A DNA stretch of 64,000 nt from an uncultured Phycisphaerales bacterium (GCA_963844715.1 CAWJPJ010000006.1:1-64000); one strand, 5' to 3'. Counted from the stretch's first letter, positions 3,001-59,189 are shown. Notes: generated from the sequence alone by a model not told the origin. A program made the numbers and translations.

Positions 3001-6000
3001 ATGACGCCACGAATTATTACTATCGCGTTACCGCGACGGTGAATGGTCCCAACGGACCCGAGACGACTTATCCTTCGGAGGAGGCCGATGCGAACTTGAC
3101 CAGCGTTGCGGCCCCGACGAACTTCGAGACATTACAGGCGACCAGTGTCGCCGCCGATCACGTATCACTGAGCTGGACGTATCCCGATCCAACTTTATCG
3201 CCGGGCGCCGCGCCGGATGAATATGGATTTGACGTTTATAGCCGGGTTCACGACACCTCCACATGGACGCTGCTGGCGACTCTTGATCCTACGCAAACGA
3301 CGTTCACGGACTATACGGTCGACGCGGGCACCACATATGATTATGAAGTCACCGCATTTAATTACATGCCCCGGGTGTCCAGCAAACGGCTTCCGATACC
3401 TTGCTTAATGTCGCCGTGCCCGGCCTGGGTTCCAACCCACCGACCCCGCCAGGCGCGCCGGCATTAATCTCGCCCCAGGAGCCATACGATGTGTCCATTG
3501 AGTGGGCGGCCGGACAGAATCCACCTTCGGGCTATACGCTCGAGTATTTGATTTATAGAGAGTCGTCCTCTTCGGGGCCCTGGACGCTTCTCGATCCGGG
3601 CGGCCAAACCGGCACCACATTCACCGACAGTTCGGCGTTGCCCTCGAGCAGCACCGCTAATCCACAAACTTATATTTATGAGGCTCGCGGCTTCTACTCC
3701 AACGGAACGTCCACATACGTATCCGCGGCGTCAGGCACGTTGACGATAACGATGCCCCTGGCCAATACGCCGCAGGTCTCGATCAGCACTAATGATATTC
3801 CAGGATCGGGGAGTTCCGTCCCTGGCACGATCCCTCCGACGCTTAGTTCAATCACGGAGATCGATGGAGTCGCGACGGATGGAGGCGCGGGTCTGAGTCA
3901 GTGGACGCTGTATCTGGTGCCGACGTCTAACACCAATTTGGCAAATATTACAGTGGCGACCGGCTCCAACTCAATTGGCGCCTACAATGGTCCCGCTTCG
4001 TTCATTACAAATCTGAACCCGTCCCTGTATCCGGCCGGCACTTATGAACTTCTGCTTTCAGCCAATTTTAAGGAGAACGGCGGCGAGACCATAACGAGTT
4101 CAGAAGTGATTACGATCACCATTCCAACCCATGCGCAAATCGGCAACTTCACTCTGCCCGTCACCGATATGACCGTCAATGTCCCCGGTCAGGCGCCGAT
4201 CGTGATCAGCCGAACTTATGACTCGAGCAAAGCATCGGAAGCGGAAAGCCTTGGCTACGGTTGGCAACTGGATTTGTCCGGGGCGCAAGTCCAAACGACG
4301 GCTACCGGCAACGCCTTTCAATTCGGCGATCTGATCTACATCACGCTGCCCGATGGGGAGCAGCACGTCTTCCAGTTCATACCGGCTCCGGACAACTACG
4401 AAACAACCGGCGACCCCAATCCCCTTGACTACTACAACGTAGAGTTTGGCAACTATGCCCCGAGTTTTGTTTGCGTCGACGGAAGCGGCGCCAAACTCAC
4501 CGTTGGTGGCGAAAACGACTTTGACCTCAGTTACGTTGACGGCCAGTTCATTAATCAAACCACGGGCGACCCCTTTGACCCGCTCACCAGCGGCACGTAC
4601 ACCGTGACCACCACCGACGGCACCGTCTACACCTTTGCCGCCAGCATGAGCAACCCGGGCACGCTGGAAAACTCGGTCGATGCCAATGGCAATGAGACCA
4701 ACTACAATTTAGACGGTGGAACAGTCATCCAAAGGGGCGGCGTTTCCGTCCATATCAACTACGAGAGAATTGACGCCGCCGGCAATTCGATCGATGTCAT
4801 TGGTTCCATCACCGCCGGCAACCAAACCGTCAACTATTTTTACGACGCCGATGGAAATCTGGAATACGTTCAGCAGCCGCAAACCCCCGCCGGCAATTAC
4901 ACCTTCACTTATGTTTATAACGATCCCGCCGACCATTACCTGAGCTCTGTTAAGAACGGCTTGAACAACACGGTCATCACGATCGGCTATGACCCGGCCA
5001 CCAATCTTTTCGACGAAGTCATAGCCGGCGGCGGCGCCGATACGTCTACCATCGCCACGGCGCTCAGACCGATCAGACCGACCAGGTCCTCACCGCCCCC
5101 AATAACAATTCCACCCAGGATATCTACGACAGTGAAGGCGACGTCATCGAGCAGATCCAAACCATCACCGATAGCTCCAACAACATCACCGGCTATCTCG
5201 TCACCTGGCACGCCTTTGACTATAGTTTTGCCAATATCGAATCGGCGGTCGAAGACGGGTTCAGCGGCGAGAATTTCCTCGCCGGCGAAACCGATTACGT
5301 CCCCTACATGGTTTCCGGCACCGATCCCGCCGGCCAGCGCGTATAAGCAACCGGCGGAATTACAGATTTCGCAGCAAACCGAGTATTACCAAACCACTGA
5401 CGATGCGAACCCGGCCGATTTCGGCCTGGTCAAGTCCGTTTCCGTCCTCGGCGCCAGCGGCGCGCTGGAGACCACGACGTATTCCAATCCCACGGGGGCG
5501 CCGGAATACATCGACGGCAATCCCGTTTACGTCGAAGACCCGCAAGGAAACATCACCCACAATTTCTACGACGCCGGCGGCAACCTGCCTCGAGACGCAG
5601 GTCCACGATTCAAAGGGCGATCTCCTCAGCGATTCCATCTATACGTACACGACGACCAGCGACTTCAACAATTACGGCGTTCCCGCCGGGCTCTTGATCA
5701 GCGAGTCCAGCCTCGGGCCCACCGGCCAGATGGTGCAGCAGTCGTACAACTCCTACTATGGCAATGATGTCGCCGCCTCCAGCCCCAGCTACGTGGCGGC
5801 CATTCCTTCCGGCAGCTTCGACGTGGCCGGCGAACTGGCCGGCACCACGGACGTCAGCGGCGTCACCCACTCTTACAATTATGACGCCGATGGGAATCAG
5901 ATCAGCGACAGCTATGTCTGGCACGATCCTTCCGCTCCCAACGACCCCTCGCAGGACGAAATCGTCACCACCACAACCGTCTACGACGCCGCCGGGCGGG

Positions 6001-9000
6001 TCATTTCCACGACCACCGGTACGGTCACCACTTTGAACAACGCGACCCTTGTGTCGGGCGTCACCACCAGCACCGATTACAACGCCGCGGGCCAGGTGGA
6101 ATCGACCACCGATGAATACGGCCAGGTCACCCAATACGTCTACGACGCCGACGGCAACCTCATCCAAACCCTCTATCCCGACAACACCAGCACGGAAACC
6201 ATCTACGATTCGGAAGGCAGAGCGATCCTGACCACCGATCGGCATGTCGTGGGCGACTCCGGGAATGCCACACTCACTGTTTATAACAGCCTGGGCCAGG
6301 TTGCCGAGACCCAGCGCGTCGCCGACGTCGCCGCAACCGTCGGCGCGGTATCCGGAATGACTGGTGTGGACCAGGTCACGGCGGTCAGCGGCGCCGGCCT
6401 CACTTCCACGGAAACCGGCGGGATTTACGTCTGGGCCGTGAACCCGACTTTCACCGGCTGGTTCTCGCAGACCAGCACCACCTATAACCCCGACGGCACG
6501 GTCGCCAGCACCACGGATGCGGACGGCCTGACCACGGACTACACCTATTATCCCAACGGCCAGCAGGAAAGCGTCACGCAGGTGAGCGTTCCGGTGTATG
6601 GCGCGACTGGCGGCGTCGAAAACCTCACCACGACCTACCAGTACAACTCCATGGGCCAGCAGAGCGACGTGACCGATCCCCTCGGCAACACGACCTCGTA
6701 TGAATATGATCCCCTCGGCCGGCTGATCTCCACCGGCTACGCCCCGGCGGTCAGCGTGGGGTCCACCTCCCTCGTCTCGACCACGACCAGCGAAACCTAC
6801 GATCCGGCGGGGAATAAGATCACCGAGACGGATCAGCTTGGCCGGGTCACGCAGTATAAGTATGACGATGCCGGCGATCTGATTGAAGTGGATCAGCCGG
6901 AGGTTTTGAACCCGGCCACCAATACGATGACCCCGCCGACGACGAGTTACGTCTACGATCAGTACGGCGACGAGTTGATGCAGATCGACGCCAACGAACA
7001 GGCGGCGTATCAGGCCTGGATCAGCGCCGGCAACACGCCGGAAAGCTTCGCCGGCCCGGCCACGCGGTATACCTACAATGCCCTCGGCCAGGAAACCTCG
7101 GAAACGCTCCCCGACGGCGAGCAGGAAACGACCCAGTACGATCAATTCGGGCGTGTTTCCTACTCCGTCGACTTCGACGGGAACGTGACGGCTTACACCT
7201 ACGACGACTCCGCCACCGGCGACGGCCGCGTGACGGGAGAATATTTCTTCCTCCCCGGTGTCGTGTTCGAAAGCAACAGCGGCGCCGTCATCACGACGAA
7301 CGCGTCGGAGAGCACAACTTACACTTACACCTTGCTCGGGCAGCAGGAGAGCGTGACCGACTCGAGTCCCACCGCGCCTATACCGCCGATGGCGCGACGA
7401 CTTACACATACGACGCCAGTGGTAACGTGATTGAGGAAAACACGCCGGAAGGGATTATCAATTATTATTACAATGCCCTGAACCAGCAGACGGACATGTG
7501 GACGGGGAACGTCACGTATGCCAATCGCGACACCGCCGAGACGTGGACGCAATATGGCTACGATTCCCTCGGCCGCCTGACCACAGTGACCCAAAGCCGC
7601 CTCAATGACCAAACCGTGAATCTGGTGACCACCTACGCCTACGACGCCAACGGCAACAAAGCCTACGAAATGGACCCTAATGGGGACATCACCACGTATG
7701 TATATGATGCACAGAATCGCCTCACCGGCGAGTTGGTCAAGAATGGCAGCACGACGCTTTATAGCGGCAGTTACATCCTCAACGCCGACGGCACCAGAAA
7801 GTCCGACTCCGAGACGGAGTTACAGCCCGGCGGGACCACGGCGACCCTATCTACGACATGGACGTATGACGCCCTGGACCGGCTGACGGGGGAGACGATC
7901 ACCAGCAGCTTGTCGGGCGGAAGCCAGACCGAGACCTGGTCGTACGATATGGACGGCAACCGGGTGAAGCAGGTCAAGGTCGCCGGCGGCGTGACCGACA
8001 CCACGACTTACACGTACAACGGCGACGACCAGATGACCCAACAGGTGGACAGCGCCACCGGGACCACCACGTTCGGGTATGACGCCAATGGCAGCCAGAC
8101 CAGCAGCACCAATGGCAGCGCCGTCACGACGTACGCGTACAATGTGCGCAACCAGCTCAGCAGCGTCACGACCGGCGGCGTGACGACCAGCTACCAATAT
8201 GATGACTCCGGTAACCGGGTGAGCGAGACGACCGGCGGCACGACGACTTACTACCTGATCGACGCCAACAACCCGACCGGCTATCCCAAGCCGATCGAGC
8301 AGTGGGTCAGCACGACGGGCAGCAGGTCCACCGCCACGTTGAGCATGAGCTACATCATCGGCGACCGGGTGCTGGCGCAGGCGAACAGCGGCGGCGCGGT
8401 GAGCTACCTGCTGGTCGATGGCCAGGACAACACGCGGGCGCTGGTCAACTCGTCGGGCGCGGTGACGGCGGTGTTCAACTATGACGCCTTCGGCAACCCC
8501 ATCGGCTCGTGGAGTCTGACCACCGCGCCGACGACGATCCTGTTCCAGCAGACGATGGTTGACCCGGCTTCGGGGTTGAACTTCGACGGGGGTCGTGAGG
8601 AAAAGATCGGGCAGGACAGCTTCATCGAAGCCGACCCGCCAGGTTACAGCAGCAACCAGAATCCGATCACGCTGAACTCGTACCTGCTGGACGGCGCGGA
8701 TTCGATCAACATGGTGGACTCGAGCGGACACGACTTTGGTCTAGGCGACATCTTATTGTCTGCCGGCATTGACTCCGAATTAGATTCAATTGAGTTCACC
8801 GGCTTCTCGGCGGCCTTCAAAACGGTACAAGGCGTTCAGGATGGAGAAAGCGCGAACCAGATTTTTGAAGGCTTCCTTATCGACCAAGCGCTCCAGGTCA
8901 CCGCGATCGTCGGCCTCGCTGCTGCCGGCAAATTGCTTGGCGGGCTAATAGATGGCAGTTTAGCAACAGCGCTTACTAACGAAGCTTCAAACCCTGCGGA

Positions 9001-9457
9001 GCAAGCGACAACGCTGGCGGAAAGTGAAATAGCAAACTCATTCTCCAACTTGGGAGCCGGGTTTGCCGAGAATAATGCGACCGCGCTGAATGAGTTCCCG
9101 GCTGGCTCAGCCTTCTCCGGTGTATACAATCCAGAGACAGGGCGCTTTCTGGCATACCCGAGCGGCGATACCTTGCTGGCTGATGGATCAGTTCCGCTGA
9201 ACAGGGTTGCGCGAAGAGCCGGTCACGGCATCGTCAATAACGTGTTCAGCCAACTGATCGGGGTAGACCCTACTTCAAATCTGGGCTTTACGTTATTCCG
9301 GGAAGACGATGGGACGTTCTCCGTCGAATGGTTTTCTGGCAGTGTCAATGGTCCGAACCCATCATTCGAAGGACCTATAGTGCCAGTGTCGATGCGGCCG
9401 CAGGTCATCAATGCGATTGAAAATGCAACCGGGCGCACTGTTACATCAGAGGAGTAA
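1..9457 (+). CDS. Giant Rhs/YD-repeat polymorphic toxin (5' end outside window; split by indels). SdrD-B-like and Ig-like domains, FN3 repeats, Rhs core, C-terminal Ntox43-like toxin.
   Basis: Consecutive ORFs 70-429, 446-1774, 1701-3467, 3401-5767, 5403-7430 and 7427-9457 form one domain series: DTDGNGQWDPGEP (SdrB-like), PTGLTAT...YYY.V.A (FN3), ISRTYDS, many YDxxGN repeats, cleavage-type motif NMVDSSGHD. The tip FSGVYNPETG...RRAGH...WFSGSVN resembles Ntox43 from memory. The paralog at 38.9 kb lacks the ~7375 frameshift. Confidence 0.88.
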
Positions 9458-9906
9458 TGGATATGGCTATTCAGGTCAGTGGTCTTCCCCTTCCGGCCGC
9501 TCTAGTGGCCGCATTGGAAAACGGCGTCTGGCAGACGCCTAGAACCCCGACTGTGTGGCAATCGCTCTTCCCGCACACAAAGGCGCGTCATGCTAAACTG
9601 TATAGTCTGAAAATGATCCAAAGCGAGAATGCTTCTTGGCCCAATGAGTCACGTCCTTTCTATGTTGGACGGGCGGACGAACATCGTCCGCCCGGTGACA
9701 TCGACCCTGCCAAGTCGCTTCTGATTGCCGATCTCGGTCCCGACAAGATGATTGCCTTGGATTACCGGGAGTCGTCGAGTCGCCCGTCAGTTCTGTATAT
9801 TACTGATGACCCGGATGGGTCAACTCGGTGGATTAGAGTTGCGCCCGACATCGAAACATTCATTCGCGCACTCGGCCTCGAAGCGGTGGGAACCCAAACG
9901 GGTTGA
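9457..9906 (+). CDS. SMI1/KNR4 (SUKH) family immunity protein
   Basis: Coupled to the toxin stop (TAATG). LPLP near the N-terminus and IALDYR...PSV...VAPDIETFI at the C-terminus fit SUKH. Confidence 0.8.
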   Translation: MDMAIQVSGLPLPAALVAALENGVWQTPRTPTVWQSLFPHTKARHAKLYSLKMIQSENASWPNESRPFYVGRADEHRPPGDIDPAKSLLIADLGPDKMIALDYRESSSRPSVLYITDDPDGSTRWIRVAPDIETFIRALGLEAVGTQTG

Positions 9907-9947
9907 ACTGCGCACCATCCTGCGTTAGGTCTTCTCCTCATCACCCT

Positions 9948-10288
9948 TCTATGAGCCGAGCCGTGTCAAGTGTGTTGACGTTGCCAGGGAGCGAGTCGGT
10001 CGTTTTAACCTTCTATTCAGAGCTTCCGCGTCCGGCATGGCGGAAGGGCAAGCCCTCCGTTTGTGCCGGGAATCGCGGGCCTATTCAACTGTACAATGCG
10101 GCAGGATGCGGAGGGCAAGCCCTCCGAATGCCCGCCAGCGCGACGCCCATTCTGTAGCGCGAGCTTTGCGAAGGGTTTTGCGCCTCCGATGGCTCAGGGA
10201 CGACAACGGGCTGTCGCTGATGACGACCGGCAAACTCCGCCAACGCAACATCATTGACCTTTCCTCTTTAGCTGCCTTCTTCCGATCA
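9948..10288 (-). ncRNA. Predicted bridge/seekRNA region of IS element A
   Basis: Minus strand carries GTCGTCCCT (10204-10196) and GCTACAG (10158-10152), matching both halves of target GTCGTCC-CT-GTAGC, plus ATAGAAG (10016-10010), matching the IS end and core. Transcript boundaries unknown. Confidence 0.75.
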
Positions 10289-11365
10289 TCACGCCGGCGT
10301 CGGCATTCCCGTCGCCGCCGCGTGGTCTTTCCAATCGGTTCCATCGCGCAACATGGCCCACAGCTTGACCAGCAGCCTCCGGGCCACGGCGACGATGGCA
10401 ATCTTCTTTCGCTTGTCGCTGCCGCGGCGGACGTTCTCATACACCTGCTTCATCCAGGTGTTGGCACGCACGCCCAGCCAGGCGACCTCCACCAGCAATC
10501 CCCGCAGCAGGCGGTTGCCGGCGTGGCTGATGTGGCCCTGGCGATCGCTTTCGCCGCTCTGCCAGCGCCGTGGTGTCAGGCCCGAATAGCTGCTGACCTG
10601 CCGGGCACTCTTGAAACGATGGGGATCGTCGATGATCGTGACCACCGCCTCGCTGAGGCGCGGGCCGACCCACGGGGCGGTCCTCAATTGCCTGACGCGC
10701 TGATCCGCCCTGGCCAGTTCCGCCAGCTTCAATTCCACCTGCCTGATCTGTTCTTCCAATCCCTCCAGCAGCTTGAGTTCCACATGCAACTGGAAACGCC
10801 ACAACTGTTCCGCCGGCGCTGACGCATCCTGCGCCGCCTTGCTCCATTCGACGATTCCCGCCGCCGCCCAGGCTTTGTCACCGGCGGGCAGCTTCAAACC
10901 CTGGCGCTCGAAGATGGCGCGGATGTTGTTCTTGATCATGGTTCTTCGGCCCACCAGGCCGTGGCGGTATTCGATAAACGACCGCCATTGCCTCACCTTC
11001 GTCGCCGGCATGTGGACCGTCGGCAGGCATCCCATCTCCGACATCTGCGCCAGCTTCAGGGCATCGGTGCGGTCGGTCTTGTTCTTCACCAGCTTCCACT
11101 GCCAACGCTGGTCGTTGGCGTTGGCGACCTGGATCGGGATGCCCAGTGTTTCGGCTAGGTCGTGCACCCATCCCGCCGCCGGTCCCGCCTCAATCACCAG
11201 GCGGTCGGGGGCGCGGTGGGTGAGCAAGTCGTGAATGGCAGCGGGATCAGTGGCCACCTTGCCGAACTCATGTTCGGCGGCTTTGCCTTCCATCGTGCCG
11301 TGATCGGTGATGTAATCCACAAAAACGCTCTTGTTCTTACCGAGATCGATGGCGAGAATCTTCAT
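10289..11365 (-). CDS. IS110 family DEDD transposase/recombinase
   Basis: MKILAIDLGK, VIEAG, KTDRTDA and SYSGLTP motifs; intact frame. Confidence 0.93.
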   Translation of the reverse strand: MKILAIDLGKNKSVFVDYITDHGTMEGKAAEHEFGKVATDPAAIHDLLTHRAPDRLVIEAGPAAGWVHDLAETLGIPIQVANANDQRWQWKLVKNKTDRTDALKLAQMSEMGCLPTVHMPATKVRQWRSFIEYRHGLVGRRTMIKNNIRAIFERQGLKLPAGDKAWAAAGIVEWSKAAQDASAPAEQLWRFQLHVELKLLEGLEEQIRQVELKLAELARADQRVRQLRTAPWVGPRLSEAVVTIIDDPHRFKSARQVSSYSGLTPRRWQSGESDRQGHISHAGNRLLRGLLVEVAWLGVRANTWMKQVYENVRRGSDKRKKIAIVAVARRLLVKLWAMLRDGTDWKDHAAATGMPTPA

Positions 11366-11490
11366 GGCCGAGTCCTTTCTCAAAGGATGACGTTTGAGCC
11401 GCCCCACGCGGGGTGAGCTCGTGTAATAACCGGAGATTTTATGCTCCGTGTTCAACGTCCCGAGGAAGGCTCGGCTTCATAGTTTCTGTA

Positions 11491-11560
11491 GCTCCGTCGC
11501 GTCGGCGTCGGCCCTCGCCCAGGAGCGCAGCGCCGGGGGCCGATGACGAGGCGATGGAGC
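11491..11560 (+). repeat. Conserved 27-bp-stem hairpin at the element left end (also 23569-23638 and 34075-34146)
   Basis: GCTCCGTCGCGTCGGCGTCGGCCCTCG pairs with CGGGGGCCGATGACGAGGCGATGGAGC; three copies in the window. Confidence 0.85.
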
Positions 11561-11714
11561 GCAAGGGCGATGATTCCCTGGTACCTCCAGAGCGGAGCGC
11601 TGAGGCTTCCGCTGAATCGGGATCGGCGGCTAAAGAAAAAACCGAGTGGTCCACCGCGCCCGCCGGCGTGCGCGTGTTGAGCGTTCAACCCACTTCTTTT
11701 TTAGCCGCGGTTGT

Positions 11715-12086
11715 TCAGGATGCTTTGGCCAGTGAGTTGATGAGACGAATGACGGCGCGCTGATCCTTGTGAGGCAGGCGCGTGACCTGGCGGAACTTCT
11801 TCCAGAGCCGGCGCACGTTGGGATCGTCCTGCTCGCTTCTTCCTTTAGTCGTCTTGCCGTTCTTCATGCCAAGCAGTTCATCGGCGCTGACGCCCAGGGC
11901 GTCGGCCAGTCTGATGATCGCGTCCACCGGGGGATAGTCGGCTTCGTTCTCGTAGTAGGTGATGGCGCGTTGCGTCGTGCCCAACGTCTGCGCGAGTTGG
12001 ACCTGGGTGATGTTGCGGGCCTTGCGCAGCTCGGCCAGCCGCCGACCAAAGCCGGTCTGTTCGGGTTGTCGGGCGATGCGTGGCAT
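11715..12086 (-). CDS. XRE-family HTH repressor (allele 1)
   Basis: RLAELRKARNITQVQLAQTLG...YYENE...LADALGVSADELLG; divergent from the primase gene. Start chosen by similarity to the other two XRE copies. Confidence 0.9.
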   Translation of the reverse strand: MPRIARQPEQTGFGRRLAELRKARNITQVQLAQTLGTTQRAITYYENEADYPPVDAIIRLADALGVSADELLGMKNGKTTKGRSEQDDPNVRRLWKKFRQVTRLPHKDQRAVIRLINSLAKAS

Positions 12087-12251
12087 GTCGTCGGTGATGG
12101 TAAACCGCATGGGAATCTTCTCCGCAAGAGGGGCGAGCGCTTGCAATATACGTTAACGCGGATACTCTCTTGCACGGATATTATCCATGAAAAATATTTT
12201 ACTTTCCAGCGGATATTGCTTGACCGGGTTCCACGGAAGGAAGGCAAAAGC

Positions 12252-17610: not shown

Positions 17611-17638
17611 CTTGTTCCCGAATCGCATCGGACTCAAC
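17611..17638 (+). other. Putative recombinase site at the element right end (11-6-11 imperfect inverted repeat); identical at 29773-29800
   Basis: CTTGTTCCCGA-ATCGCA-TCGGACTCAAC, 7/11 dyad symmetry. Identity between copies stops 2 bp after it. Confidence 0.55.
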
Positions 17639-21053: not shown

Positions 21054-21056
21054 ATT

Positions 21057-27822: not shown

Positions 27823-29090
27823 AGGCTGGCATCCCGGGCCAAGGGCGATCATCGGCGATCCCACCGACCGCGCGGCATGGCCGCGCTGCGGGACCAATAC
27901 CTGGACCACATGGCGGTGCTCAACTTCGCGCCCGACACCATCTACGTGCGGCGGGTCTACCTCAACTTCTTCGTCAAGTGGTGTCATGAGCGCTCGGTCG
28001 TGCGCCCCGGCGAAGTCACCAAGCCGATCGTGGACCGCTACCAGCGCTGGATGTACCAGTTCCGTTCTCCCAAGGGCAAGCCGCTGAGCTTCACCAGTCA
28101 GAACGGGCGCTTGGCGGCGGTCAAGGCGTGGTTCCGCTGGCTGACGCGCTTCAACCATATCCTCTCCAACCCGGCGTCGGACGTGGACCTTCCGCGCGTG
28201 GACCGCAAGCTGCCGCGTCACGTGCTGACGGCCAGCGAGGTCGATCAAATCCTCAACGGCACGGAGATCAAGGACCTGCGCGGACTGAGGGACCGGGCCT
28301 TTTTGGAGACGCTCTACTCGACGGGATTGCGCCGCCGGGAAATGGTGAACCTGAGCATCTATGACGTGGACATGGAGCGCGGGACGGTGCTGGTGCGCAA
28401 GGGGAAGAACCGCAAGGACCGGATCGTTCCCATCGGCCAGCGCGCCATCCTGTGGCTGAGTAAATACCTGTCCGAAGCGCGGCCGCAGTTGGCCCCCAAC
28501 CGGGAGGAAGCCTTGTTCGTGACGCAGATCGGCGATCCGTTCACGGCCAACAGCGCGACGCAGCTTGCCCGTCATTACGTGGAGAAAGCCAAGCTCCCCA
28601 GCGGCAAGCGCGGGGCGTGCCACCTGTTCCGCCACACGATGGCGACCTTGATGCTGGAAGGCGGCGCGGACGTGCGCTACGTGCAGGCGATGCTCGGCCA
28701 CGCGGACATCAGCTCGACGCAGATTTACACGCACGTCGGCATCCGCACGCTCCAGCAGGTGCACGCGATCACGCATCCGGCGGGCCTGGTCAAACGTCCG
28801 TCCAGCATCGGCGTTGCGGGCCACGTCCTGCCGGCCTACGGCGCCAACGAGGGATCGGACCTGCCGGACGTGCTGGTGGAAGATCCCGCGTGCCGGCGCG
28901 GGTTGAGGGAGGATCAACCGCTGCCGCGACCTGGCGCGCGCCGCCGGTGAACGGTAACGCCGCCGATCTGGCTGACTTCCTGGCTCGTGATGATGACGAT
29001 GACACCCTCGACGAGCTCGGGGCAGGCGACACCGGGGACGCGGCCGGCGGCGCGGAAGTCGCGGCTTTTCGGCGCGCTGATGACGGCTGA
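27812..29090 (+). CDS. XerC/D-like tyrosine recombinase, copy 2
   Basis: 357-aa ORF 27877-28950 has the full R-K-HxxR-H-Y set; indels near both ends. Confidence 0.9.
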
Positions 29091-29152
29091 TAGCGCCAAC
29101 TTCCGAGCCGGCGCGGGGTTGCGTGGATCGGCTATCAGCCGCGAAGCGGGCT

Positions 29153-29254
29153 ATGAGCCGCAAGCTCCACTCGCTCGATCACTTACCGCCGCGGCTGATA
29201 GCCGCCTTTATCTTGCTCTACAACCTGACCCACTGGGTCGCGGTTTTGGGCTAA
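29153..29254 (+). CDS. 33-aa hydrophobic small peptide (possible type I toxin)
   Basis: MSRKLHSLDHLPPRLIAAFILLYNLTHWVAVLG*. Copy 1 (from 16980) has an 11-bp insertion. Confidence 0.35.
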   Translation: MSRKLHSLDHLPPRLIAAFILLYNLTHWVAVLG

Positions 29255-29800
29255 CTTCCCGCTCCGGTGGGACTTGCGAATCCCGCCGCCGCCGCGCAAG
29301 GTGCAAACACCTTGCCTCTCAAGGTCATAGGTTGCGCCAGGTCATGACGGGACAGAGAGTTACAAAAAGCGCACCTTGGTTCCTTTTACCTTGCCCTCAC
29401 CCTTCAAACCTTCCTTCTTCTTCTTTTAGCTGCTGATTCAAACCCTCCGCTGCGCTGATCCGTCGTCGATCTGCGCGCTTCTCCGTGCGCAGGCAGCCGC
29501 TATCCCACCCTCCTTAGCCGCCTCGTGGAGCGCACGTCTCGCGCCGATCCTGCACACTGACGACAGCTTGGGCGGCTAAAAAGGAAAGCTGTTGGAGCGC
29601 TGGATGCGCGGGTAAGATGCTCTCCCGACGTGCACGGCTGCGCCAACATCATCCTCCCTGGCCGTCGCCAGTTAAGCCGAAACCTGCCTCAAGGCGCGCA
29701 ACGATCTGCGCGCAGATTGCGCCGGCAAAGTCGATCCTGTAACCGTTGGAAGGCATCGGGATTGCGCGTCGGCTTGTTCCCGAATCGCATCGGACTCAAC

Positions 29801-31788
29801 TATAGCATGGCGTACACTCTGAACCCCGACGGCACGCGGGCCACGGAAACCCAGGAGCAGGCGCAGGTCAGCGGCTCACCCATCTACACCTTCACCAGTT
29901 GGAGCTACGACGCCGAGGATCGGCTCATAGGCGAATCCCTGACCAACCTGACCAGCGGCTTTACGTTGCCGTCGGCGTATATCACCAACGGCGACTTCAG
30001 CGGTTCGATGACCTGGGACGGCTCGGGGGCGTACGCGTCGTCAAATCTGACCGAAGCGCAGGCCGGCATGGGCACCGGAGCAGTCCTCTTTGACCCGTCG
30101 CTGGGCATCAAGTACGGCGGCAACGGATCGGATTGGGTTCTGGTGCTCGACAACCAAGGTCAGGTCGCGACGATCTCCTATTCCTTAAGTTATTCGGGTG
30201 TGTTCACGGCCGATGGCGTGGTCAAGAGTTCAGAATTTACCAGCCCGGCCGGCTTCACGCTGAGCGGATCGCCGACCGGCTACACCGACACTTACTCCTA
30301 TGACATGGACGGCAACCGGATCGGCAAGGTTCATACGACGACGGCGGGTACGGACACCACGACTGACACGTACAACGGCGACAACGAACTGACCCAAAGC
30401 GTGGACAGCACCAGCGGGACGACGACGTTCACGTATGACGCCAATGGAAGCCAGTTGACCAGCACCAACGGCAGCAATGTCACGACCTACACGTATGACC
30501 TGCGCAACCGGCTGGCATCGGTGACGACTGATGGAGTGACGACGACTTACAGCTACGATAACGACGGGAATCGGGTCAGCGAGACCACCGGCGGAACGAC
30601 GACTTACTACCTGATCGACGCGCACAATCCGACGGGTTACGCCAAGCCGATTGAGGTGAAGGTCGGCTCGCCGACGGCAGCGCCCAGCACGAGCTACATC
30701 CTGGGCCTGAGCGTGATCGGTCAAGCCACCAGCGGCGCTGCCTCGTATCTGCTGGTTGACGGCCAGAACAACACCCGCGCCCTGGTCAACTCGTCAGGCG
30801 TGGTGACGGCCACGTTCAACTTTGATGCTTTCGGCAACGTGCTGGGTGTCACCTATACGCCGTCAAGTCCGCCGCCGACGATCTTCCTGTACCAGCAGAT
30901 GATGTACGACCCGGCGTCGGGATTGAACTTCACCGAGAGCCGTCAGACGCCGCTCGGCGCGCCTATTGGATCGAGCGTGACCCGTCCGGTTATGGCAACA
31001 ACGCGAATCCCATCACGCTCAATACCACCTTGTTTGACAACGCCAATCCCCTCATGTTCACCGATCCAACCGGGCATGATGGTTTGGCTGGGTTGTTGGT
31101 AGATATAGGCATTGAGGGATTGGAGGATAGTATCGAGTTACCCGCCGTCTCCAGCGCCGTGGCCGCGGGGTCGGAGGTTGGCGCATCCGCAAGTGTCGCT
31201 GATTCTGCCGCCATGCTGTTGGCGCGAGGGGCAACATACTTCGCCACCGTTTATGGGGCCGCTACGACACTGATTGATGGCGCTTACGCTGCCAGCAGCA
31301 TTATCGAGAAGGCAGTCGACGACGCCATTTGGAATGAGGTGCTGACCCACGCCCTGAATCATCAGGTGCTTAGCGCGACCGACTTTAAGTACCTCAACGA
31401 TCTTGCACAAAAAGACTTGGGCGAGAGCATTTATTTACACTATAGCTTTGTGAGTCAGGCCGCGAACTTTGCGTTTGGAATGCGAGATGCTACACAGGCG
31501 CCACCGCTCGGCTCTTACGTGACGACGGACACGTATTTGACAGGCTGGGATGCCCACAACTTCCTGGCGCTGCCAAGCTCCAATATTCAGGATGCAGAAT
31601 ACATCGTGCTGGTTAAACGTGGTCTTCCGGCCGTCGGTCCAAGCCTGGTGCCGGCTGGCTTTGATGGAGCTAGCCCACCGCGGTCTCTGCAAGGAGGTGG
31701 TATTCAATACACGTTACCACAGGGTTCAGGTGGTCCCGGAACGGTGTTTGGACCGATTCCTCTTCCACCTGGGTCCGTTCCTTCATGA
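29801..31788 (+). CDS. Orphan Rhs cassette 3, possible ART-like toxin (frameshift ~30960)
   Basis: Begins YSMAYTLNPDG at the element end; DPTGHD; tip LHYS...YVT...LALP...GGGIQY. Confidence 0.78.
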
Positions 31789-32474: not shown

Positions 32475-32531
32475 CTTTAACGGGCCGCTTGCTTCATCAA
32501 GCCAGTCGTAACATTCTCCCCCGTCGTCCCT

Positions 32532-34069
32532 TCTATGAGCCGAGCCGTGTCAAGTGTGTTGACGTTGCCAGGGAGCGAGTCGGTCGTTTTAACCTTCTAT
32601 TCAGAGCTTCCGCGTCCGGCATGGCGGAAGGGCAAGCCCTCCGTTTGTGCCGGGAATCGCGGGCCTATTCAACTGTACAATGCGGCAGGATGCGGAGGGC
32701 AAGCCCTCCGAATGCCCGCCAGCGCGACGCCCATTCTGTAGCGCGAGCTTTGCGAAGGGTTTTGCGCCTCCGATGGCTCAGGGACGACAACGGGCTGTCG
32801 CTGATGACGACCGGCAAACTCCGCCAACGCAACATCATTGACCTTTCCTCTTTAGCTGCCTTCTTCCGATCATCACGCCGGCGTCGGCATTCCCGTCGCC
32901 GCCGCGTGGTCTTTCCAATCGGTTCCGTCCGCAACATGGCCCACAGCTTGACCAGCAGCCTCCGGGCCACGGCGACGATGGCAATCTTCTTTCGCTTGTC
33001 GCTGCCGCGGCGGACGTTCTCATACACCTGCTTCATCCAGGTATTGGCACGCACGCCCAGCCAGGCGACCTCCACCAGCAATCCCCGCAGCAGGCGGTTG
33101 CCGGCGTGGCTGATGTGGCCCTGGCGATCGCTTTCGCCGCTCTGCCAGCGCCGTGGCGTCAGGCCCGAATAGCTGCTGACCTGCCGGGCACTCTTGAAAC
33201 GATGGGGATCGTCAATGATCGTGACCACCGCCTCGCTGAGGCGCGGGCCGACCCACGGGGCGGTCCTCAATTGCTTCACGCGCTGATCCGCCCTGGCCAG
33301 TTCCGCCAGCTTCAATTCCACCTGCCTGATCTGTTCTTCCAATCCCTCCAGCAGCTTGCAGTTCCACATGCAACTGGAAACAGCCACAACTGTTCCGCCG
33401 GCGCTGACGCATCCTGCGCCGCCTTGCTCCATTCGACGATTCCCGCCGCCGCCCAGGCTTTGTCACCGGCGGGCAGCTTCAAACCCTGGCGCTCGAAGAT
33501 GGCGCGGATGTTGTTCTTGATCATGGTTCTTCGGCCCACCAGGCCGTGGCGGTATTCGATAAACGACCGCCATTGCCTCACCTTCGTCGCCGGCACGTGG
33601 ACCGTCGGCAGGCATCCCATCTCCGACATCTGCGCCAGCTTCAGGGCATCGGTGCGGTCGGTCTTGTTCTTCACCAGCTTCCACTGCCAACGCTCGTCGT
33701 TGCCGTTGGCGACCTGGATCGGGATGCCCAGTGTTTCGGCTAGGTCGTGCACCCATCCTGCCGCCGGTCCCGCCTCAATCACCAGGCGATCGGGGGCGCG
33801 GTGGGTGAGCAAGTCGTGAATGGCAGCGGGATCAGTGGCCACCTTGCCGAACTCATGTTCGGCGGCTTTGCCTTCCATCGTGCCGTGATCGGTGATATAA
33901 TCCACAAAAACGCTCTTGTTCTTACCGAGATCGATAGCGAGAATCTTCATGGCCGAGTCCTTTCTCAAAGGATGACGTTTGAGCCGCCCCACGCGGGGTG
34001 AGCTCGTTAATAACCGGGGATTTTATGCTCCGTGTTCAACGTCCCGAGGAAGGCTCGGCTTCATAGTTT
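32532..34069 (-). mobile_element. IS1111-group element A, copy 2 (transposase 32873-33950, frameshifted)
   Basis: Near-identical to 9948-11485; CT core at 32530-31 and 34070-71. Confidence 0.92.
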
Positions 34070-34793
34070 CTGTAGCTCCGTCGCGTCGGCGTCGGCCCTC
34101 GCCCGTGGAGCGCACGCGCCGGGGGCCGACGCTGATGCGATGGAGCGGAAGGGCGACTCCCTGGTAGCTCCAGAGCGGAGCGCCGAGGTCCGGCTGTATC
34201 CTTCCACGTCCAGCCATGTCCAGCATCGCGCGGGTGCAACGCCGGCGTGCGCGCTGAAGCCCAACCCACTTCTTTTTTAGCTGCTGTAGCTGCCGCCGCC
34301 GTGTTCAAGACGCGCGGAATTATCCGGCTCTCTTGCCGGCGTGCTGCGCGGCCAGGGCGTCGATGAACTTCAACACGGCCTTTTGATCGTGGGCGGGGAA
34401 GCGCTCGAGCAATTGCATGCGCCGAAGCACGCGGCGGCTGACGCCGTTGCCGTTGGCTTTGTGGGATTGCGCCGGCGCGATGCCCAACAACTCATCGGCG
34501 CTGACGCCCAAAGCCTGGGCGAGTTGGCCGATCATCGCGGCGTGGGGCCTGACGCGGCCGCACTCATAGCTGGAGATAACGGCCTGGATCGTGCCGGCCT
34601 TCTCGGCCAGTTCGATCTGAGTGAAGCCGCGCTCTTTGCGCAGCCGCGCCATCCGCTGGCCGATGGTCTCGGCGTCGGTTCTGCTGCGCGTCGGGCTGTT
34701 GGCGATCCTGGGCATGGGCACAATTATACGGGCGACTGGGCGCGGGAGGGGTTGGGGACACCTTGCAAATACAATAGGACGTTGTAATACTGG
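34070..34793 (+). mobile_element. Left-end remnant of the primase/recombinase element (hairpin, XRE, part of the divergent promoter)
   Basis: Similarity to copy 2 ends after GGACGTTGTAATACTGG and is followed directly by an Rhs core. Confidence 0.8.
34320..34721 (-). CDS. XRE-family HTH repressor (allele-2 type)
   Basis: Close to the 23775-24170 protein. Confidence 0.9.
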   Translation of the reverse strand: MPMPRIANSPTRSRTDAETIGQRMARLRKERGFTQIELAEKAGTIQAVISSYECGRVRPHAAMIGQLAQALGVSADELLGIAPAQSHKANGNGVSRRVLRRMQLLERFPAHDQKAVLKFIDALAAQHAGKRAG

Positions 34794-36301
34794 CTACAAT
34801 GCGTATACCTATGACCTCGTCGGCAATCGAAAGTCGGACGTCCTAAGCGGAAGCGAGGACGGTACGGCCGGCACGACCACTTACTCATACAACAGCGATA
34901 ACGAACTGACCAGCCAAACCGTCGGTTCCACCACAACGACGTTCACGTTCGACAACAACGGCAGTCAATTGACCAGCACGACGGGAAGCAACGTCACAAC
35001 GAACACGTACAACGTTCGTAATGAACTAAACAGCGTTGCCACCGGCGGCTCGACCACCACCTATGTCTACAACGACGCAGGGAATCTTGTGCAGGAAACG
35101 ACGAGCGGGACGACGACTTACTATCTGGTCGATGACAACAATCCGACGGGGTATGCCAAGCCGATCGAGGTGCGGGTCGGGTCAGCGAGCGGCACGCCAA
35201 CCACGACGTACATCCTTGGTGACCGCGTCATCGGTCAGGCGAATAGCTCCGGCGCCGTGAGCTACTTGCTGACTGACGGCGAAGATAACACCCGCGCTCT
35301 CGTCAGCTCGTCGGGCACCATCACGGCTGCATACAACTACGATCCGTTCGGTGATCCGATTGGCTTTAGCCTCTCCACGGCCTCGACGCGGTTGCTGTTC
35401 CAGCAAACGATGTTCGATGCGCCGTCAGGGTTGAACATCTTCGGCGACGGTCAGCGCGAAGCAGAAGTCGGAGAGGACAACTTCATCGAGGCCGATTCCC
35501 CCGGATACAGCGACAACGTCGATCCATTAACGCTCAACGGATATCTATTGGACGGGGCCAATCCGATCAGCAACGTCGACCCCAGTGGGCACGATCTGAC
35601 CGACATTCTTGTGTCGTTAGGACTAAGCGAAACGATCGCATCGGCGACATCGGGATTCGCAATCAGAGCCGCTATTGGGGGAGCCACAAACGTCGCAATT
35701 CAATGGACATTGACGGCGACATTGACGCCCAACCAATATACCGTCCAGCAGGGCATCTATGATTTTTTAACAGGTGGACTAACGGCTGGCGCATCGAATG
35801 CTCTCATGGCACCACTCAAGTCCATCCTCGGTGGCCTCGGCTTGTCGGAAGCATTTCAGATCCTAGGCAGCGTGTCGGGAGGCTGGATTACTGCAGCAAT
35901 TGGTGACACTATTTCGTATGTTGGACGATCCGAACTATTTAGTCACGAGACACCCTCCGATAAAGAGATTGCCGAAGCCTTTGCATTCTCCCTTGTCGGC
36001 AACGCGATCGGAGGAACGGCAAGCAGCGCTATTCAGTCGCAATTTGCCGACAGCGCGAGAGGCAGCCCCAGAGCATGCTTTAACAGCGTACAATCAGTTT
36101 GAGGCCCGCATAAGCGGGAGCGGAAATGATTTTCTGGAGCTTGTATCTCAAGCTCTCGATCAGGGTTATCCTTATGCTCGGTCGCTGGGACTATATATTA
36201 TTGACAACGTGCAGCCAATTGCGAAGGCCATAGGTTATGGAGTCGAGGGTGCCGTCGATGCCGCGGCAGACTTGCTCAAGGAGGCAATCAACCAGCAATA
36301 G
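34793..36301 (+). CDS. Orphan Rhs cassette 4, hydrophobic helical tip (frameshift ~36070)
   Basis: Begins YNAYTYDLVGNR; DPSGHD; Gly/Ala-rich C-terminus. Confidence 0.75.
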
Positions 36302-36346
36302 CTGAACCCGGCCTGCCTATTTGATTTAAATCGAGCAGAGCTTCCC

Positions 36347-37030
36347 ATGCCGCAAGTATTCAAGATAAACAACTTTTCGACTGCGGATAGTTTAATCGTT
36401 GCCTCAACTGTCGTCGTAATGGCGCTCGGCTTCTTTTTCTCCGCTCGTACGCTGGTTAGGGCAATCGTTGATTTAATAAAGGAAAGAGCCCCAAAGGGGG
36501 CTTGGGAGTGGGCAGGAACTTTCCTCATACTTTGGTTCGTCTTAGTAGCAGTTGCGGCGAGGGCCGCGATTGCCGTCGCCGCGCGCGGTGGTGCGGGTGC
36601 CAGTTCGGGGATGGTCGGGGTCGGTGTGCCCTCTGCAAGTTCCGCGGCCGTGCGCACTTCCGCAGGGAAAAACCGGGCCGGCGGCTGGCTCGCCGTCTCG
36701 ATCATTATGGTTTTTCTGCTGCCCGCCTTATTTGTTCGGACCATCTTGTTTGAGCAGCCGCAACGTATGGCCGTCTCAAATTCCGGAATCGAATTACTTT
36801 ATCGGCTTCCCTGGCGCAACCTTTCGATCAATTGGTCTAACATTAGTGATATCCAACTCGATCGCAAAGAATATTACGTGCAAGGCATCACGAAAGCTCA
36901 CAATTACACGATCGTTATCGATCACGATGGAGCCGAGACTAGGATTGTGACCGATCCGTGGTATGAGGACCAAGTGAATGCCGCGTATCAAGCTGCGAAG
37001 GCGAAGTTAAAAGATTATAAAGGAGAATGA
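36347..37030 (+). CDS. Putative membrane immunity protein of cassette 4
   Basis: Three hydrophobic segments; lies after the toxin. Confidence 0.6.
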   Translation: MPQVFKINNFSTADSLIVASTVVVMALGFFFSARTLVRAIVDLIKERAPKGAWEWAGTFLILWFVLVAVAARAAIAVAARGGAGASSGMVGVGVPSASSAAVRTSAGKNRAGGWLAVSIIMVFLLPALFVRTILFEQPQRMAVSNSGIELLYRLPWRNLSINWSNISDIQLDRKEYYVQGITKAHNYTIVIDHDGAETRIVTDPWYEDQVNAAYQAAKAKLKDYKGE

Positions 37031-37039
37031 AAAAGTCAT

Positions 37040-40000
37040 GTGGCTAGTTGCCGACGCGCCTTTAACCCCGACGGCACCGTACAGAGCGCGACGGATGCGG
37101 ATGGCCTGACCACCGCTTACACCTATTATCCCAACGGCCAGCAGGAAACCGTGACGCAAGAATCTGTGTCGGTTTACAATGCAACCACGAGTACGACCAG
37201 CGACTTCAACAATTACGGCGTTCCCGCCGGGCTCTTGATCAGCGAGTCCAGCCTCGGGCCCACCGGCCAGATGGTGCAGCAGTCGTACAACTCCTACTAT
37301 GGCAATGATGTCGCCGCCTCCAGCCCCAGCTACGTGGCGGCCATTCCTTCCGGCAGCTTCGACGTGGCCGGCGAACTGGCCGGCACCACGGACGTCAGCG
37401 GCGTCACCCACTCTTACAATTATGACGCCGATGGGAATCAGATCAGCGACAGCTATGTCTGGCACGATCCTTCCGCTCCCAACGACCCCTCGCAGGACGA
37501 AATCGTCACCACCACAACCGTCTACGACGCCGCCGGGCGGGTCATTTCCACGACCACCGGTACGGTCACCACTTTGAACAACGCGACCCTTGTGTCGGGC
37601 GTCACCACCAGCACCGATTACAACGCCGCGGGCCAGGTGGAATCGACCACCGATGAATACGGCCAGGTCACCCAATACGTCTACGACGCCGACGGCAACC
37701 TCATCCAAACCCTCTATCCCGACAACACCAGCACGGAAACCATCTACGATTCGGAAGGCAGAGCGATCCTGACCACCGATCGGCATGTCGTGGGCGACTC
37801 CGGGAATGCCACACTCACTGTTTATAACAGCCTGGGCCAGGTTGCCGAGACCCAGCGCGTCGCCGACGTCGCCGCAACCGTCGGCGCGGTATCCGGAATG
37901 ACTGGTGTGGACCAGGTCACGGCGGTCAGCGGCGCCGGCCTCACTTCCACGGAAACCGGCGGGATTTACGTCTGGGCCGTGAACCCGACTTTCACCGGCT
38001 GGTTCTCGCAGACCAGCACCACCTATAACCCCGACGGCACGGTCGCCAGCACCACGGATGCGGACGGCCTGACCACGGACTACACCTATTATCCCAACGG
38101 CCAGCAGGAAAGCGTCACGCAGGTGAGCGTTCCGGTGTATGGCGCGACTGGCGGCGTCGAAAACCTCACCACGACCTACCAGTACAACTCCATGGGCCAG
38201 CAGAGCGACGTGACCGATCCCCTCGGCAACACGACCTCGTATGAATATGATCCCCTCGGCCGGCTGATCTCCACCGGCTACGCCCCGGCGGTCAGCGTGG
38301 GGTCCACCTCCCTCGTCTCGACCACGACCAGCGAAACCTACGATCCGGCGGGGAATAAGATCACCGAGACGGATCAGCTTGGCCGGGTCACGCAGTATAA
38401 GTATGACGATGCCGGCGATCTGATTGAAGTGGATCAGCCGGAGGTTTTGAACCCGGCCACCAATACGATGACCCCGCCGACGACGAGTTACGTCTACGAT
38501 CAGTACGGCGACGAGTTGATGCAGATCGACGCCAACGAACAGGCGGCGTATCAGGCCTGGATCAGCGCCGGCAACACGCCGGAAAGCTTCGCCGGCCCGG
38601 CCACGCGGTATACCTACAATGCCCTCGGCCAGGAAACCTCGGAAACGCTCCCCGACGGCGAGCAGGAAACGACCCAGTACGATCAATTCGGGCGTGTTTC
38701 CTACTCCGTCGACTTCGACGGGAACGTGACGGCTTACACCTACGACGACTCCGCCACCGGCGACGGCCGCGTGACGGGAGAATATTTCTTCCTCCCCGGT
38801 GTCGTGTTCGAAAGCAACAGCGGCGCCGTCATCACGACGAACGCGTCGGAGAGCACAACTTACACTTACACCTTGCTCGGGCAGCAGGAGAGCGTGACCG
38901 ACTCGAGTCCCACCGGCGCCTATACCGCCGATGGCGCGACGACTTACACATACGACGCCAGTGGTAACGTGATTGAGGAAAACACGCCGGAAGGGATTAT
39001 CAATTATTATTACAATGCCCTGAACCAGCAGACGGACATGTGGACGGGGAACGTCACGTATGCCAATCGCGACACCGCCGAGACGTGGACGCAATATGGC
39101 TACGATTCCCTCGGCCGCCTGACCACAGTGACCCAAAGCCGCCTCAATGACCAAACCGTGAATCTGGTGACCACCTACGCCTACGACGCCAACGGCAACA
39201 AAGCCTACGAAATGGACCCTAATGGGGACATCACCACGTATGTATATGATGCACAGAATCGCCTCACCGGCGAGTTGGTCAAGAATGGCAGCACGACGCT
39301 TTATAGCGTGACATACACGCTGAATAAGGACGGCACCCGCGCCAGCGCAACGGAGATGAACGGGTCGACTTCGATCAGCACCAGTTGGACCTACGACAAC
39401 CTCGACCGCCTGCTCGCCGAAACGATCGTCAGCGGCGGCACTTCAACCGATACCTATACCTACGATCTGGTCGGCAACATCGTCACCAAGAACCACGTCG
39501 TCGACGGCTCCGGGGCCGAAACAACGACGTATCACTACAACGGTGACAATGAACTTTACCAGCAGGTGGACAGCGTCACCGGTACGACCAACTTCACCTA
39601 CGACGCGAACGGAGACCAGACCGGCAGCACAGCGAGCACCACGATCACGACCTACACGTATGACCTCGAGAACAAGATGATCTCCGAAGCCGTCAACGGC
39701 GCGACGCAGGCGAGCTACATTTATGACGAGGCAGGCAACAGGGTTCAGGAGACCGTCGGCAGCACGACCAGTTACTACCTGACCGACGACGATAATCCGA
39801 CGGGTTATGCCGAGCCGTTGGAGGTCAGAACCTACACCGGCTCAACCCCATCCCTTGGTGCCGCGTCGCTGTCGATGACGTATCTGATTGGGGACAACGT
39901 TTTCGGGCAGGTGAACTCTTCCGGGACGGCCAGTTACTTCGTCATCGACGGCCACGGCAGCACCCGCGCTCTGGTCAGTTCTACAGGCTCGGTAACCGCC

Positions 40001-58673: not shown

Positions 58674-59189
<516 letters not shown>

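Follow-up and report, generated by a model that had tools for sequence, protein, structure and literature searches.

A 2.1-kb direct repeat brackets a composite array of orphan tips and primase-XerC units in a planctomycete Rhs locus and suggests an exact-repeat tip switch

It is a long-accepted view that Rhs and contact-dependent growth inhibition (CDI) toxins exchange their killing ends when they recombine with spare tips. The route by which new tips arrive, and the reason why orphan tips begin where they do, are to our knowledge long-open questions. Both are raised by a stretch of 64,000 nucleotides from an uncultured Phycisphaerales bacterium (GCA_963844715.1, CAWJPJ010000006.1:1-64000; in the following the window), in which a main rhs gene is followed by an array of orphan tips, and a 2.1-kb segment of the gene (upstream copy R1) recurs downstream of most of the array in front of a spare 3' end (copy R2). 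The locus thus asks how the second copy came to its place and what a crossover between the copies would do. Our best joint explanation is an exact-repeat tip switch, with R2 and the tip behind it representing a former end of the main gene that was displaced by a Campbell-type crossover; this explanation may about equally well be right or wrong. The mapped features are collected in Table 1.

As judged from its domains, the locus is an Rhs (YD-repeat) polymorphic-toxin gene of a planctomycete with an orphan-tip array. YD repeats of the shell were detected by NCBIfam YD_repeat_2x above its cut-off, and Pfam RHS_repeat matched 5403-7430 (E=1.7e-33) and 37040-40555 (E=2.9e-50). The Rhs core model TIGR03696 gave weak matches of 20-24 bits in the main gene (22.3) and in orphans 4 and 6 at a cut-off of 32.5; PF25023 is present in database relatives. 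A variable C-terminal region is followed by a small candidate immunity gene, the similarity between tips stops after the core, and the cassette junction lies about 320 codons upstream of the core end. Seven 5'-truncated orphans were found downstream of the main gene; they differ in their C-terminal ends, and small ORFs lie behind each. The orphans have 5' limits at main gene positions 5652, ~7600, 7761-7767 (two), ~7937 (two) and ~8207.

The direct repeat was found where the original prediction had placed it. Self-BLASTN of the window aligned R1 (5652-7766) and R2 (37193-39308) over 2116 columns with 0 mismatches and one gap (99.95 % identity). Direct comparison located this sole difference, a 1-nt indel, at 7375, with one G in R1 and GG in R2 (38916-38917) and identical sequence thereafter. 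The start-to-start spacing of the two copies is 31,541 nt. They form the only 100 % repeat above 330 nt within the window; the remaining long repeat pairs are diverged, with 91-98.8 % identity, and chance is therefore ruled out for R1/R2. Both edges are abrupt: no similarity exists upstream of 5652 and 37193, and past 7766 and 39308 the identity falls from 100 % to 44-74 %. Both copies begin on the first codon position (5652 in frame 3, 37193 in frame 2). The repeat is thus common to the main gene and the tip 5 orphan in the same reading phase, as in a switch of the Salmonella type, and direct repeats of one shared segment bracket a 31.5-kb insert, as after a Campbell-type integration. The repeated segment is a part of the shell-coding region of the main gene with R1 as its native copy. 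R2 heads tip 5, a spare 3' end behind which a small candidate immunity gene is located. A related Rhs protein, P0001, showed 100 % identity in windows of 40 aa between about residues 41 and 800 and was continuous across 5652; since it runs through the flanks of R1, the context of R1 has to be seen as native. P0001 evidently belongs to a strain-level relative in which R is identical at the protein level; in the resistance-nodulation-division (RND) pump of a close relative (P0122), 1040 of 1046 residues were identical.

One RecA-type crossover between R1 and R2 would delete 31,541 bp as a circle. Lost with this deletion would be tips 1-4 and the immunity candidates belonging to them, the two primase-XerC units and three insertion sequence (IS) copies. 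The same crossover would join tip 5 to the stalk and thereby switch tips in the way known for main and orphan genes of Salmonella. By the logic of the sequence this excision reading holds. The predicted in-frame fusion to tip 5 and the circle of about 31.5 kb stood with respect to phase and length, but the stalk itself switches frame. As assembled, the main gene is not intact in one frame; it is read in six segments (1-429, 350-1774, 1686-3467, 3362-5767, 5226-7430 and 6887-9457), thus with five frame switches over 9.4 kb, of which the one at 7375 falls within R1. A crossover left of 7375, corresponding to 1,723 of the 2,115 nt, is the only one that would give an open R-tip 5 frame; this frame would extend from ~5226 to 40555, and the break near 5587 would still separate the upstream stalk.

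Further broken genes were both primases, one XerC, two of the three IS110 copies and the IS21 istA, while three long housekeeping open reading frames (ORFs; 438, 1067 and 1344 aa, 8.5 kb) were free of frame breaks. The breaks were confined to the rhs gene, the primase-XerC modules and the IS copies, that is to positions 1-47012 of the window versus a clean stretch at 51880-63289. This distribution agrees with unpolished repeats in a long-read assembly, or with genuine locus decay. In P0001 the frame stays open past both the break near 5587 and that at 7375, with 2 mismatches over 597 residues (99.67 %), thus these two breaks may be sequencing errors; P0001 carries an indel difference of its own near 5330. 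Three indel differences against few substitutions suggest sequencing error or a very recent change in a repeat-rich region that is difficult to polish. The 1-nt indels between repeat copies gave a mixed picture with respect to homopolymer context (0/7, 2/4 and 6/9), which does not settle error against decay.

A diverged paralogous fragment in front of R2 had been described in the original prediction and was confirmed: 37059-37158 is 86 % identical to 6481-6580 at the nucleotide level (self-BLASTN), and 37061-37186 is 81 % identical to 6483-6608 at the amino acid level with the codon phase kept, in frame with R2. The join is novel and out of register, a piece resembling 6481-6608 being followed by position 5652. 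Examination of the join for microhomology gave nothing convincing. In an assembly artefact only a single R would exist, and reads from cells with different tips would have been chained into one path. The perfect identity of the copies and the wealth of repeats and 1-nt indels in the locus would agree with this, and a near-identical strain with another tip exists, so that mixed populations are conceivable. A false overlap, however, would not pair a 6481-6608-like piece with position 5652, the source contig of 1,256,906 bp suggests long reads that span 2.1 kb, and the same bracketed architecture occurs in completed genomes of Ralstonia and Escherichia coli. The out-of-register join and the 1.26-Mb contig make a misassembly less likely than the original prediction had allowed, and we consider it very improbable. 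A non-reciprocal copying is improbable as well. A break in an older, diverged orphan before tip 5 would have been repaired off the main gene, pasting 2.1 kb of R either by gene conversion or by template switching with end joining. Such a repair would leave a 100 % tract with one homologous and one non-homologous edge and a diverged remnant (86 %) just upstream, as found, but the out-of-register join and a tip 5 that is only 44-74 % like tip 1 make strand invasion hard.

In a Campbell-type integration one reciprocal crossover leaves the insert bracketed by direct repeats, and the reverse crossover frees the circle. Applied to this locus, R2 and tip 5 would be the former end of the main gene, displaced when DNA with the fragment, R, tip 1 and the rest of the array recombined with a gene of the form stalk-R-tip 5. 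One reciprocal crossover, anywhere in R or at the hexanucleotide TATAGC at its right end, would have been sufficient and would be reversible. The array would have been built earlier by plasmid-like units of ~8.3 kb, consisting of tip, immunity gene, helix-turn-helix (HTH) gene, primase, XerC and a right end (RE), each of which would have entered rhs at the TATAGC point, probably through its own XerC-like recombinase. As R1 and R2 are undiverged, the incoming DNA would have originated from the same or a near-identical strain. Integration was ranked just ahead because homologous units exist occupied, empty and as circles. The replacement of a previous tip by an integrating circle, as originally predicted, is in so far plausible; nothing in the window polarises such an integration.

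The zero divergence would also be expected of a recent intragenomic duplication. In this rather unlikely alternative, two steps took place in situ: a tandem duplication of 5652-37192 by an illegitimate join of the fragment end to the R start, then a deletion, between the R/tip 1 junction and the junction before tip 5, that fused R to tip 5, with the first copy keeping all immunity genes. The left join is indeed illegitimate, the right one coincides exactly with the cassette site, and a model of duplication followed by main/orphan recombination has been published for Salmonella, according to the available text (PMC3967940). On the other side, two rare events are needed, together with an ancestral arrangement of fragment, diverged R remainder and tip 5 that has no witness, and the end product is the same as that of a Campbell integration.

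The right edge of R (TATAGCG/, 7766/7767; a slash marks the junction) is, in this lineage, the fixed point for the attachment of tips to rhs. Identity profiles changed sharply at this point. Between the main gene and orphan 2 the identity was 66-76 % left of the junction and 94-100 % right of it for ~900 nt; between the main gene and orphan 6 the left side was unrelated and the right side 94-100 % identical for ~300 nt; between the main gene and R2 the identity was 100 % on the left and 44-74 % on the right. The high similarity of tip 1 to orphans 2 and 6 starts from exactly 7767. The junction words are TATAGCG/GCAG in the main gene, TATAGCG/TCAG in orphan 2 and TATAGCG/TGAC at R2, and the end of the second primase module is joined to orphan 3 as CTCAACTATAGC/ATGG. 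TATAGC occurs 12 times in the window on both strands, four times at cassette joins. The second unit lies at the corresponding rhs position of a diverged orphan, and both of its joins carry TATAGC. The left part of this orphan (R', 66-76 % identical to R, followed in orphan 2 by an H block 94-100 % like that of tip 1) and orphan 3 abut on 4 of 4 outgroup Rhs proteins, with an overlap of 2-3 residues that equals TATAGC; the 8.25 kb from 21550 to ~29806 therefore represent an insertion that precisely splits a diverged orphan which was once continuous. For this unit, a purely homologous recombination of the Campbell type was rejected, as its flanks, R' and orphan 3, are without a duplicated arm; the similarity of orphan 3 to the H block of the unit itself is only ~74 %. 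Integration at strictly one site was likewise rejected as a rule for all orphans, as orphans 1b and 4 begin near 7937.

P0001 shows another tip at the same point. At diagnostic positions it has main-type residues left of the junction (4/4) and orphan 6 residues right of it (6/6), thus a near-identical strain has the same stalk and R joined there to tip 6. The switch lies at most 2 nt from the edge of the H block, where a crossover inside the shared H block would not place it. Either tip 6 came first and the later blocks were inserted at exactly this point, or the P0001 allele arose by a site-specific deletion.

The original prediction regarded the interval between the repeats as one unit of 31.5 kb. 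This view was not retained. The interval contains tip 1 and its immunity gene, four orphan tips, three IS110-family copies and two separate units of ~8.3 kb, and is best described as a composite rather than one element. Each unit carries a triad of a minus-strand HTH gene, a primase of ~1000 aa with CHC2 zinc-finger and Toprim domains and a XerC-like tyrosine recombinase, followed by a conserved RE of ~350 nt that stops at TCAACTA. The 9.87 kb of 7767-17640 are homologous to unit 2 except for the toxin/immunity part and the HTH region; without IS110 copy a, unit 1 measures 8.33 kb, and it occupies the same rhs position in the main gene. In self-BLASTN the primase modules were 98.8 %, 91 % and 96 % identical in three blocks. 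Both modules lie inside the repeat as predicted, but both primase genes and XerC copy 1, one of two, are frame-broken as assembled. The intact XerC copy 2 matched Pfam phage_integrase (E=8.1e-41 for 27877-28950), and in an alignment of six sequences R152/R153, K177/K180, H249, R252, H275 and Y284 were invariant; the R, K, H-x-x-R, H and Y columns we take to be its catalytic residues. An integron is not indicated, as the NCBIfam integron integrase model gave 88 bits at a cut-off of 265; no search for attC sites was made. That the whole 31.5 kb would be a single site-specific mobile element with R as attachment (att) repeat is hardly credible: recombinase and primase genes do lie inside the block, but coding sequence repeated over 2.1 kb does not constitute an att site, the interval holds two complete ~8.3-kb units with ends of their own in addition to orphans and IS copies, and no RE adjoins R2.

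A third left end (34070-34793) is 81 % identical to 23564-24247 and runs straight into orphan 4; it represents a deleted unit. IS110 copies a and b each adjoin a triad's left end at an identical base, before CTGTAGCTCCGTC, and a third, different IS110-family copy (c) lies inside the TCAACTA/TAGC end of RE1. These positions look like a sequence-targeted insertion into unit ends.

Homologous triads were found in other bacteria. The primase C-domain is rare among plasmids (37 of 72,556 records), and the contexts of 10 of these 37 records were inspected. In six of the ten, from Janthinobacterium, Paraburkholderia, Pseudomonas aeruginosa, Ralstonia, Enterobacter and Providencia, the triad immediately follows the gene of a large repeat protein (Rhs, filamentous haemagglutinin/CdiA-type, FG-GAP or invasin-type), and that gene has a small gene behind it; many of these six contexts contain two triads, separated by orphan toxin/immunity genes. 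Frequent companions of the proteobacterial triad copies are SymE, VbhA or RelE/ParE genes. In a Salmonella record the triad is located 5 kb from a two-partner secretion locus, and in a Leptospira record it adjoins parA with no toxin annotated. No main/orphan repeat was detected at the DNA level in the Enterobacter and Salmonella loci at E<=1e-4. In Paraburkholderia both units have a conserved stretch after the XerC gene, then a cdiA fragment starting at cdiA position 4470. A Lonsdalea circle of 11,289 bp contains the triad, a second, truncated primase and two nuclease-tip/immunity pairs. A circular record of Shigella flexneri (8,758 bp) with a triad recurs in full length within chromosomal Rhs loci of 44 of 5,426 complete E. 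coli genomes. E. coli CREC-2 has two tandem units behind VgrG-Rhs-immunity with a period of about 8.8 kb and, ~0.9 kb after each XerC, a piece of 80-90 nt of the rhs core end. The Shigella circle may be one period of such a tandem array, excised or produced by assembly, and not a true plasmid.

A natural analogue of the window repeat is an allele pair of Ralstonia solanacearum. In strain Po82 a direct rhs repeat of 1.08 kb (95 %) brackets tip, immunity gene, HTH gene, primase and XerC; strain IBSBF1503 is without this unit of 9,959 bp. The variable sites of IBSBF1503 correspond to the left repeat of Po82 up to 3285 and to the right repeat from 3354, with 2 stray sites. From this single switch in the polymorphism pattern, the two alleles differ by one reciprocal crossover in the repeat, the same type of reaction that the original prediction proposed for the window.

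Several observations weigh against a tip switch at a displaced former end. Zero substitutions in 2.1 kb fit an in-situ duplication at least as well. The out-of-register join of fragment and R2 is explained neither by homologous recombination nor by recombination at the TATAGC site, and R2 has no preceding RE, unlike orphan 3. Orphans 1b and 4 start at ~7937 of the main gene, so TATAGC is not the sole junction. With five breaks in the main gene, a switch might give no working toxin unless these are sequencing errors, and with broken primases and XerC copy 1 an inert block is conceivable. The Ralstonia alleles do not reveal whether the unit was inserted or deleted. Protein searches retrieved no stalk-R-tip 5 allele, the sole close relative having tip 6. 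Finally, the case for this particular repeat is built on the assembled sequence. Empty or free states were seen for homologous units only, namely the Ralstonia empty allele and the small circular records; a free circle or an empty-site allele of the window's own repeat was not found. A scan with the R protein of a collection of genome contigs, to which neither the source genome nor close relatives belong, yielded 5 loci of 22-38 % identity, among them neither an empty nor an occupied allele of this locus.

A wider reading is possible, which we advance tentatively: the primase modules would belong to a widespread, undescribed plasmid-like family that delivers tips into Rhs, CdiA and other toxin genes at a fixed gene point by its own recombinase, and the 2.1-kb repeat would be the footprint of an element that had picked up host rhs and re-entered by one crossover. 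The tip of such a unit would be fused in frame to the resident stalk and the old tip pushed downstream as an orphan; the pick-up of host rhs would resemble an F-prime taking host DNA. The searched literature, which did not include subscription journals and bioRxiv supplements, contained no paper on the HTH-primase-XerC triad in toxin loci, no fixed junction at the nucleotide level and no tips belonging to such units; papers beyond this search may describe these.

The repertoire of tips differs between strains. For tip 5, the search of the protein set gave nothing above 61 % identity over most of the query. P0251, encoded like P0001 on a 32,423-bp contig of the relative, reached 91 % over 34 % of the tip 5 query: its core is 91 % like that of tip 5, and its C-terminal 197 residues match nothing in the window. 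As the toxin end differs, the two strains differ in tip repertoire. As witness of the state before R2, P0251 was rejected, being a cassette with a core like that of tip 5 and a different toxin end. Upstream of orphan 6, the last 51 codons of an IS5-like transposase gene stop abruptly at the first base of rhs similarity. This join between the interior of an IS and the H block of orphan 6 is not accounted for by simple IS insertion. The fragment was rejected as missing end of the transposase gene 47721-48593, which is complete. A word of ~70 nt ending GGTTTTGTTCTCAGGGTGTTAGG is present twice in tandem before the IS5-like fragment (41573-41688) and once near an rve-type transposase gene (49392-49462); it is probably an IS end. 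Beyond the IS cluster and adjoining the efflux genes, the 270-nt piece at 50916-51188 is 94 % identical at the nucleotide level to 5565-5800 and 79 % identical at the amino acid level to residues 83-183 of P0001; it is what remains of another, older copy of the rhs gene. Right of the array, intact genes encode HlyD, an RND pump of 1067 aa and a GloVer-repeat protein of 1344 aa. The best named relatives of the pump were Planctomycetota, Tepidisphaeraceae and Phycisphaerae with 84-89 % identity. Inside the GloVer-repeat gene (minus-strand ORF 59255-63289) five tandem repeats of 306 nt, 62-71 % identical, are located at 60409-61825.

Table 1. Features of the rhs locus. Positions are counted from the first nucleotide of the window.
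Feature	Position	Strand	Remarks
Main rhs gene, 5' end outside the window	1..9457	+	Pfam SdrD_B, fn3, DUF6531, RHS_repeat; NCBIfam YD_repeat
R1, upstream repeat copy, YD-repeat shell	5652..7766	+	Without one G at 7375; flanks continuous in relative P0001
Recurrent cassette junction TATAGCG	7760..7766, 21543-21549, 39302-39308; TATAGC 29801-29806	+	
Tip 1: H block (7767 to ~8100), remaining shell/core, C-terminal toxin region	7767..9457	+	
Tip 1 immunity candidate, SUKH/SMI1_KNR4	9457..9906	+	Pfam PF09346, E=1.5e-6
IS110-family copy a	9944..11485	-	388-aa transposase 10289-11455; Pfam Transposase_20, DEDD_Tnp_IS110
Triad 1	11486..17640	+	HTH 11730-12053 (-); primase 12261-15411, at least 4 frame pieces; XerC-like 15639-16620, 3 pieces
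RE1, right end of triad 1	17634-17640 (TCAACTA)		Ends TCAACTA
IS110-family copy c, frame-broken	17641..19108	+	Pfam match; inserted at RE1 end
RE3, then orphan tip 1b	19130..20301	+	RE3 an 80 % RE copy, ends 19553; rhs similarity from ~main 7937
Orphan 2: R' (21384-21549), then H block from 21550	21375..23231	+	
Triad 2	23564..29806	+	HTH 23799-24125 (-); primase pieces 24328-27678; intact XerC-like 27823-28950
RE2, right end of triad 2			Ends CTCAACTATAGC
Orphan 3	29807..31102	+	Continues R' across unit 2
IS110-family copy b, frame-broken	32528..34069	-	97.9 % identical to copy a
Third triad left end with HTH gene (34344-34670, -), running into orphan 4	34070..36102	+	No primase or XerC
Orphan 4, after third triad left end	34621-36102	+	Within 34070..36102
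Unrelated ORF, probable tip 4 immunity gene	36302..37030	+	Stop directly before the fragment; no Pfam match
Diverged rhs fragment, like R-internal 6481-6608	37031..37192	+	In frame with R2, out of register
R2, downstream repeat copy	37193..39308	+	Within uninterrupted ORF 37040-40555 (1171 aa)
Tip 5 (39309-40555) and overlapping small ORF 40552-40956, immunity candidate	39309..40956	+	
Orphan 6, preceded by truncated IS5-like transposase C-terminus (41688-41838, -)	41688..43526	+	rhs similarity from 41839 = main 7767
Third stalk piece, like 5555-5830	50916..51188	+	94 % nt identity over 237 nt; spans left edge of R1

The locus bears on both questions posed at the outset. A long perfect homology arm would prime one particular spare tip for the next switch, a single junction defined to the nucleotide is used repeatedly, and two tips are physically part of ~8.3-kb units with primase and tyrosine recombinase. 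If the triad is the vehicle, tip acquisition becomes testable by recombination assays and long reads of populations; a carrier family, if it exists, would be the missing mechanism for building orphan arrays from Planctomycetota to E. coli. Should the repeat be no more than a recent duplication in place, it would illustrate Rhs plasticity in an ordinary, if clean, manner.

Among the systems compared, the Ralstonia pair shares with the window an Rhs gene, tip, HTH gene, primase, XerC and orphan rhs within a bracketing direct rhs repeat; it differs by a single 9,959-bp unit, a repeat of 1.08 kb at 95 % and thus diverged partners, and an intact primase and XerC. A Campbell episome differs from the window in that copy 2 is preceded here by an out-of-register rhs fragment and that no circle was seen. 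Orphan toxin/immunity cassettes arrayed behind cdiA and rhs genes were reportedly described by Poole et al. in 2011 and by Jackson et al. in 2009 (as cited in PMC3032704). In the available descriptions they resemble the window by a partial core with variable C-terminal tips and small downstream genes, stacked behind a main gene, but name, as far as seen, no fixed junction or carrier, whereas tips of the window share one rhs position as their start, and two are connected with primase-XerC units. XerC/D genes have been noted beside polyimmunity loci (Zhang et al. 2012, PMC3482391), and related arrangements are the rAID systems of Bacteroidales (PMC12247911); in such loci a tyrosine recombinase adjoins arrays of orphan immunity genes with a conserved intergenic sequence and is proposed to collect the cassettes. 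Compared with the published description of rAID, the cassettes of the window are toxin tips in frame on an rhs fragment, and, unlike in the published accounts of the rAID and polyimmunity loci, the recombinase is accompanied by an HTH gene and a CHC2/Toprim primase of ~1000 aa, and the units are situated within the array of the toxin gene itself. A published precedent for the switch itself is Salmonella Typhimurium, in which recombination of rhs-main with rhs-CT-orphan yields a chimeric gene with the orphan toxin, the main tip and its immunity gene being deleted (Koskiniemi et al. 2014, PMC3967940). According to the part of that report available to us, the Salmonella repeat comprises 522 bp at 95 % between adjacent genes and recombinants were observed; in the window 2,115 bp at 100 % lie 31.5 kb apart, with four other orphans and mobile units between the copies, and the switch is predicted from the sequence. 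In its layout the window repeat is a large, clean case of this published main/orphan recombination.

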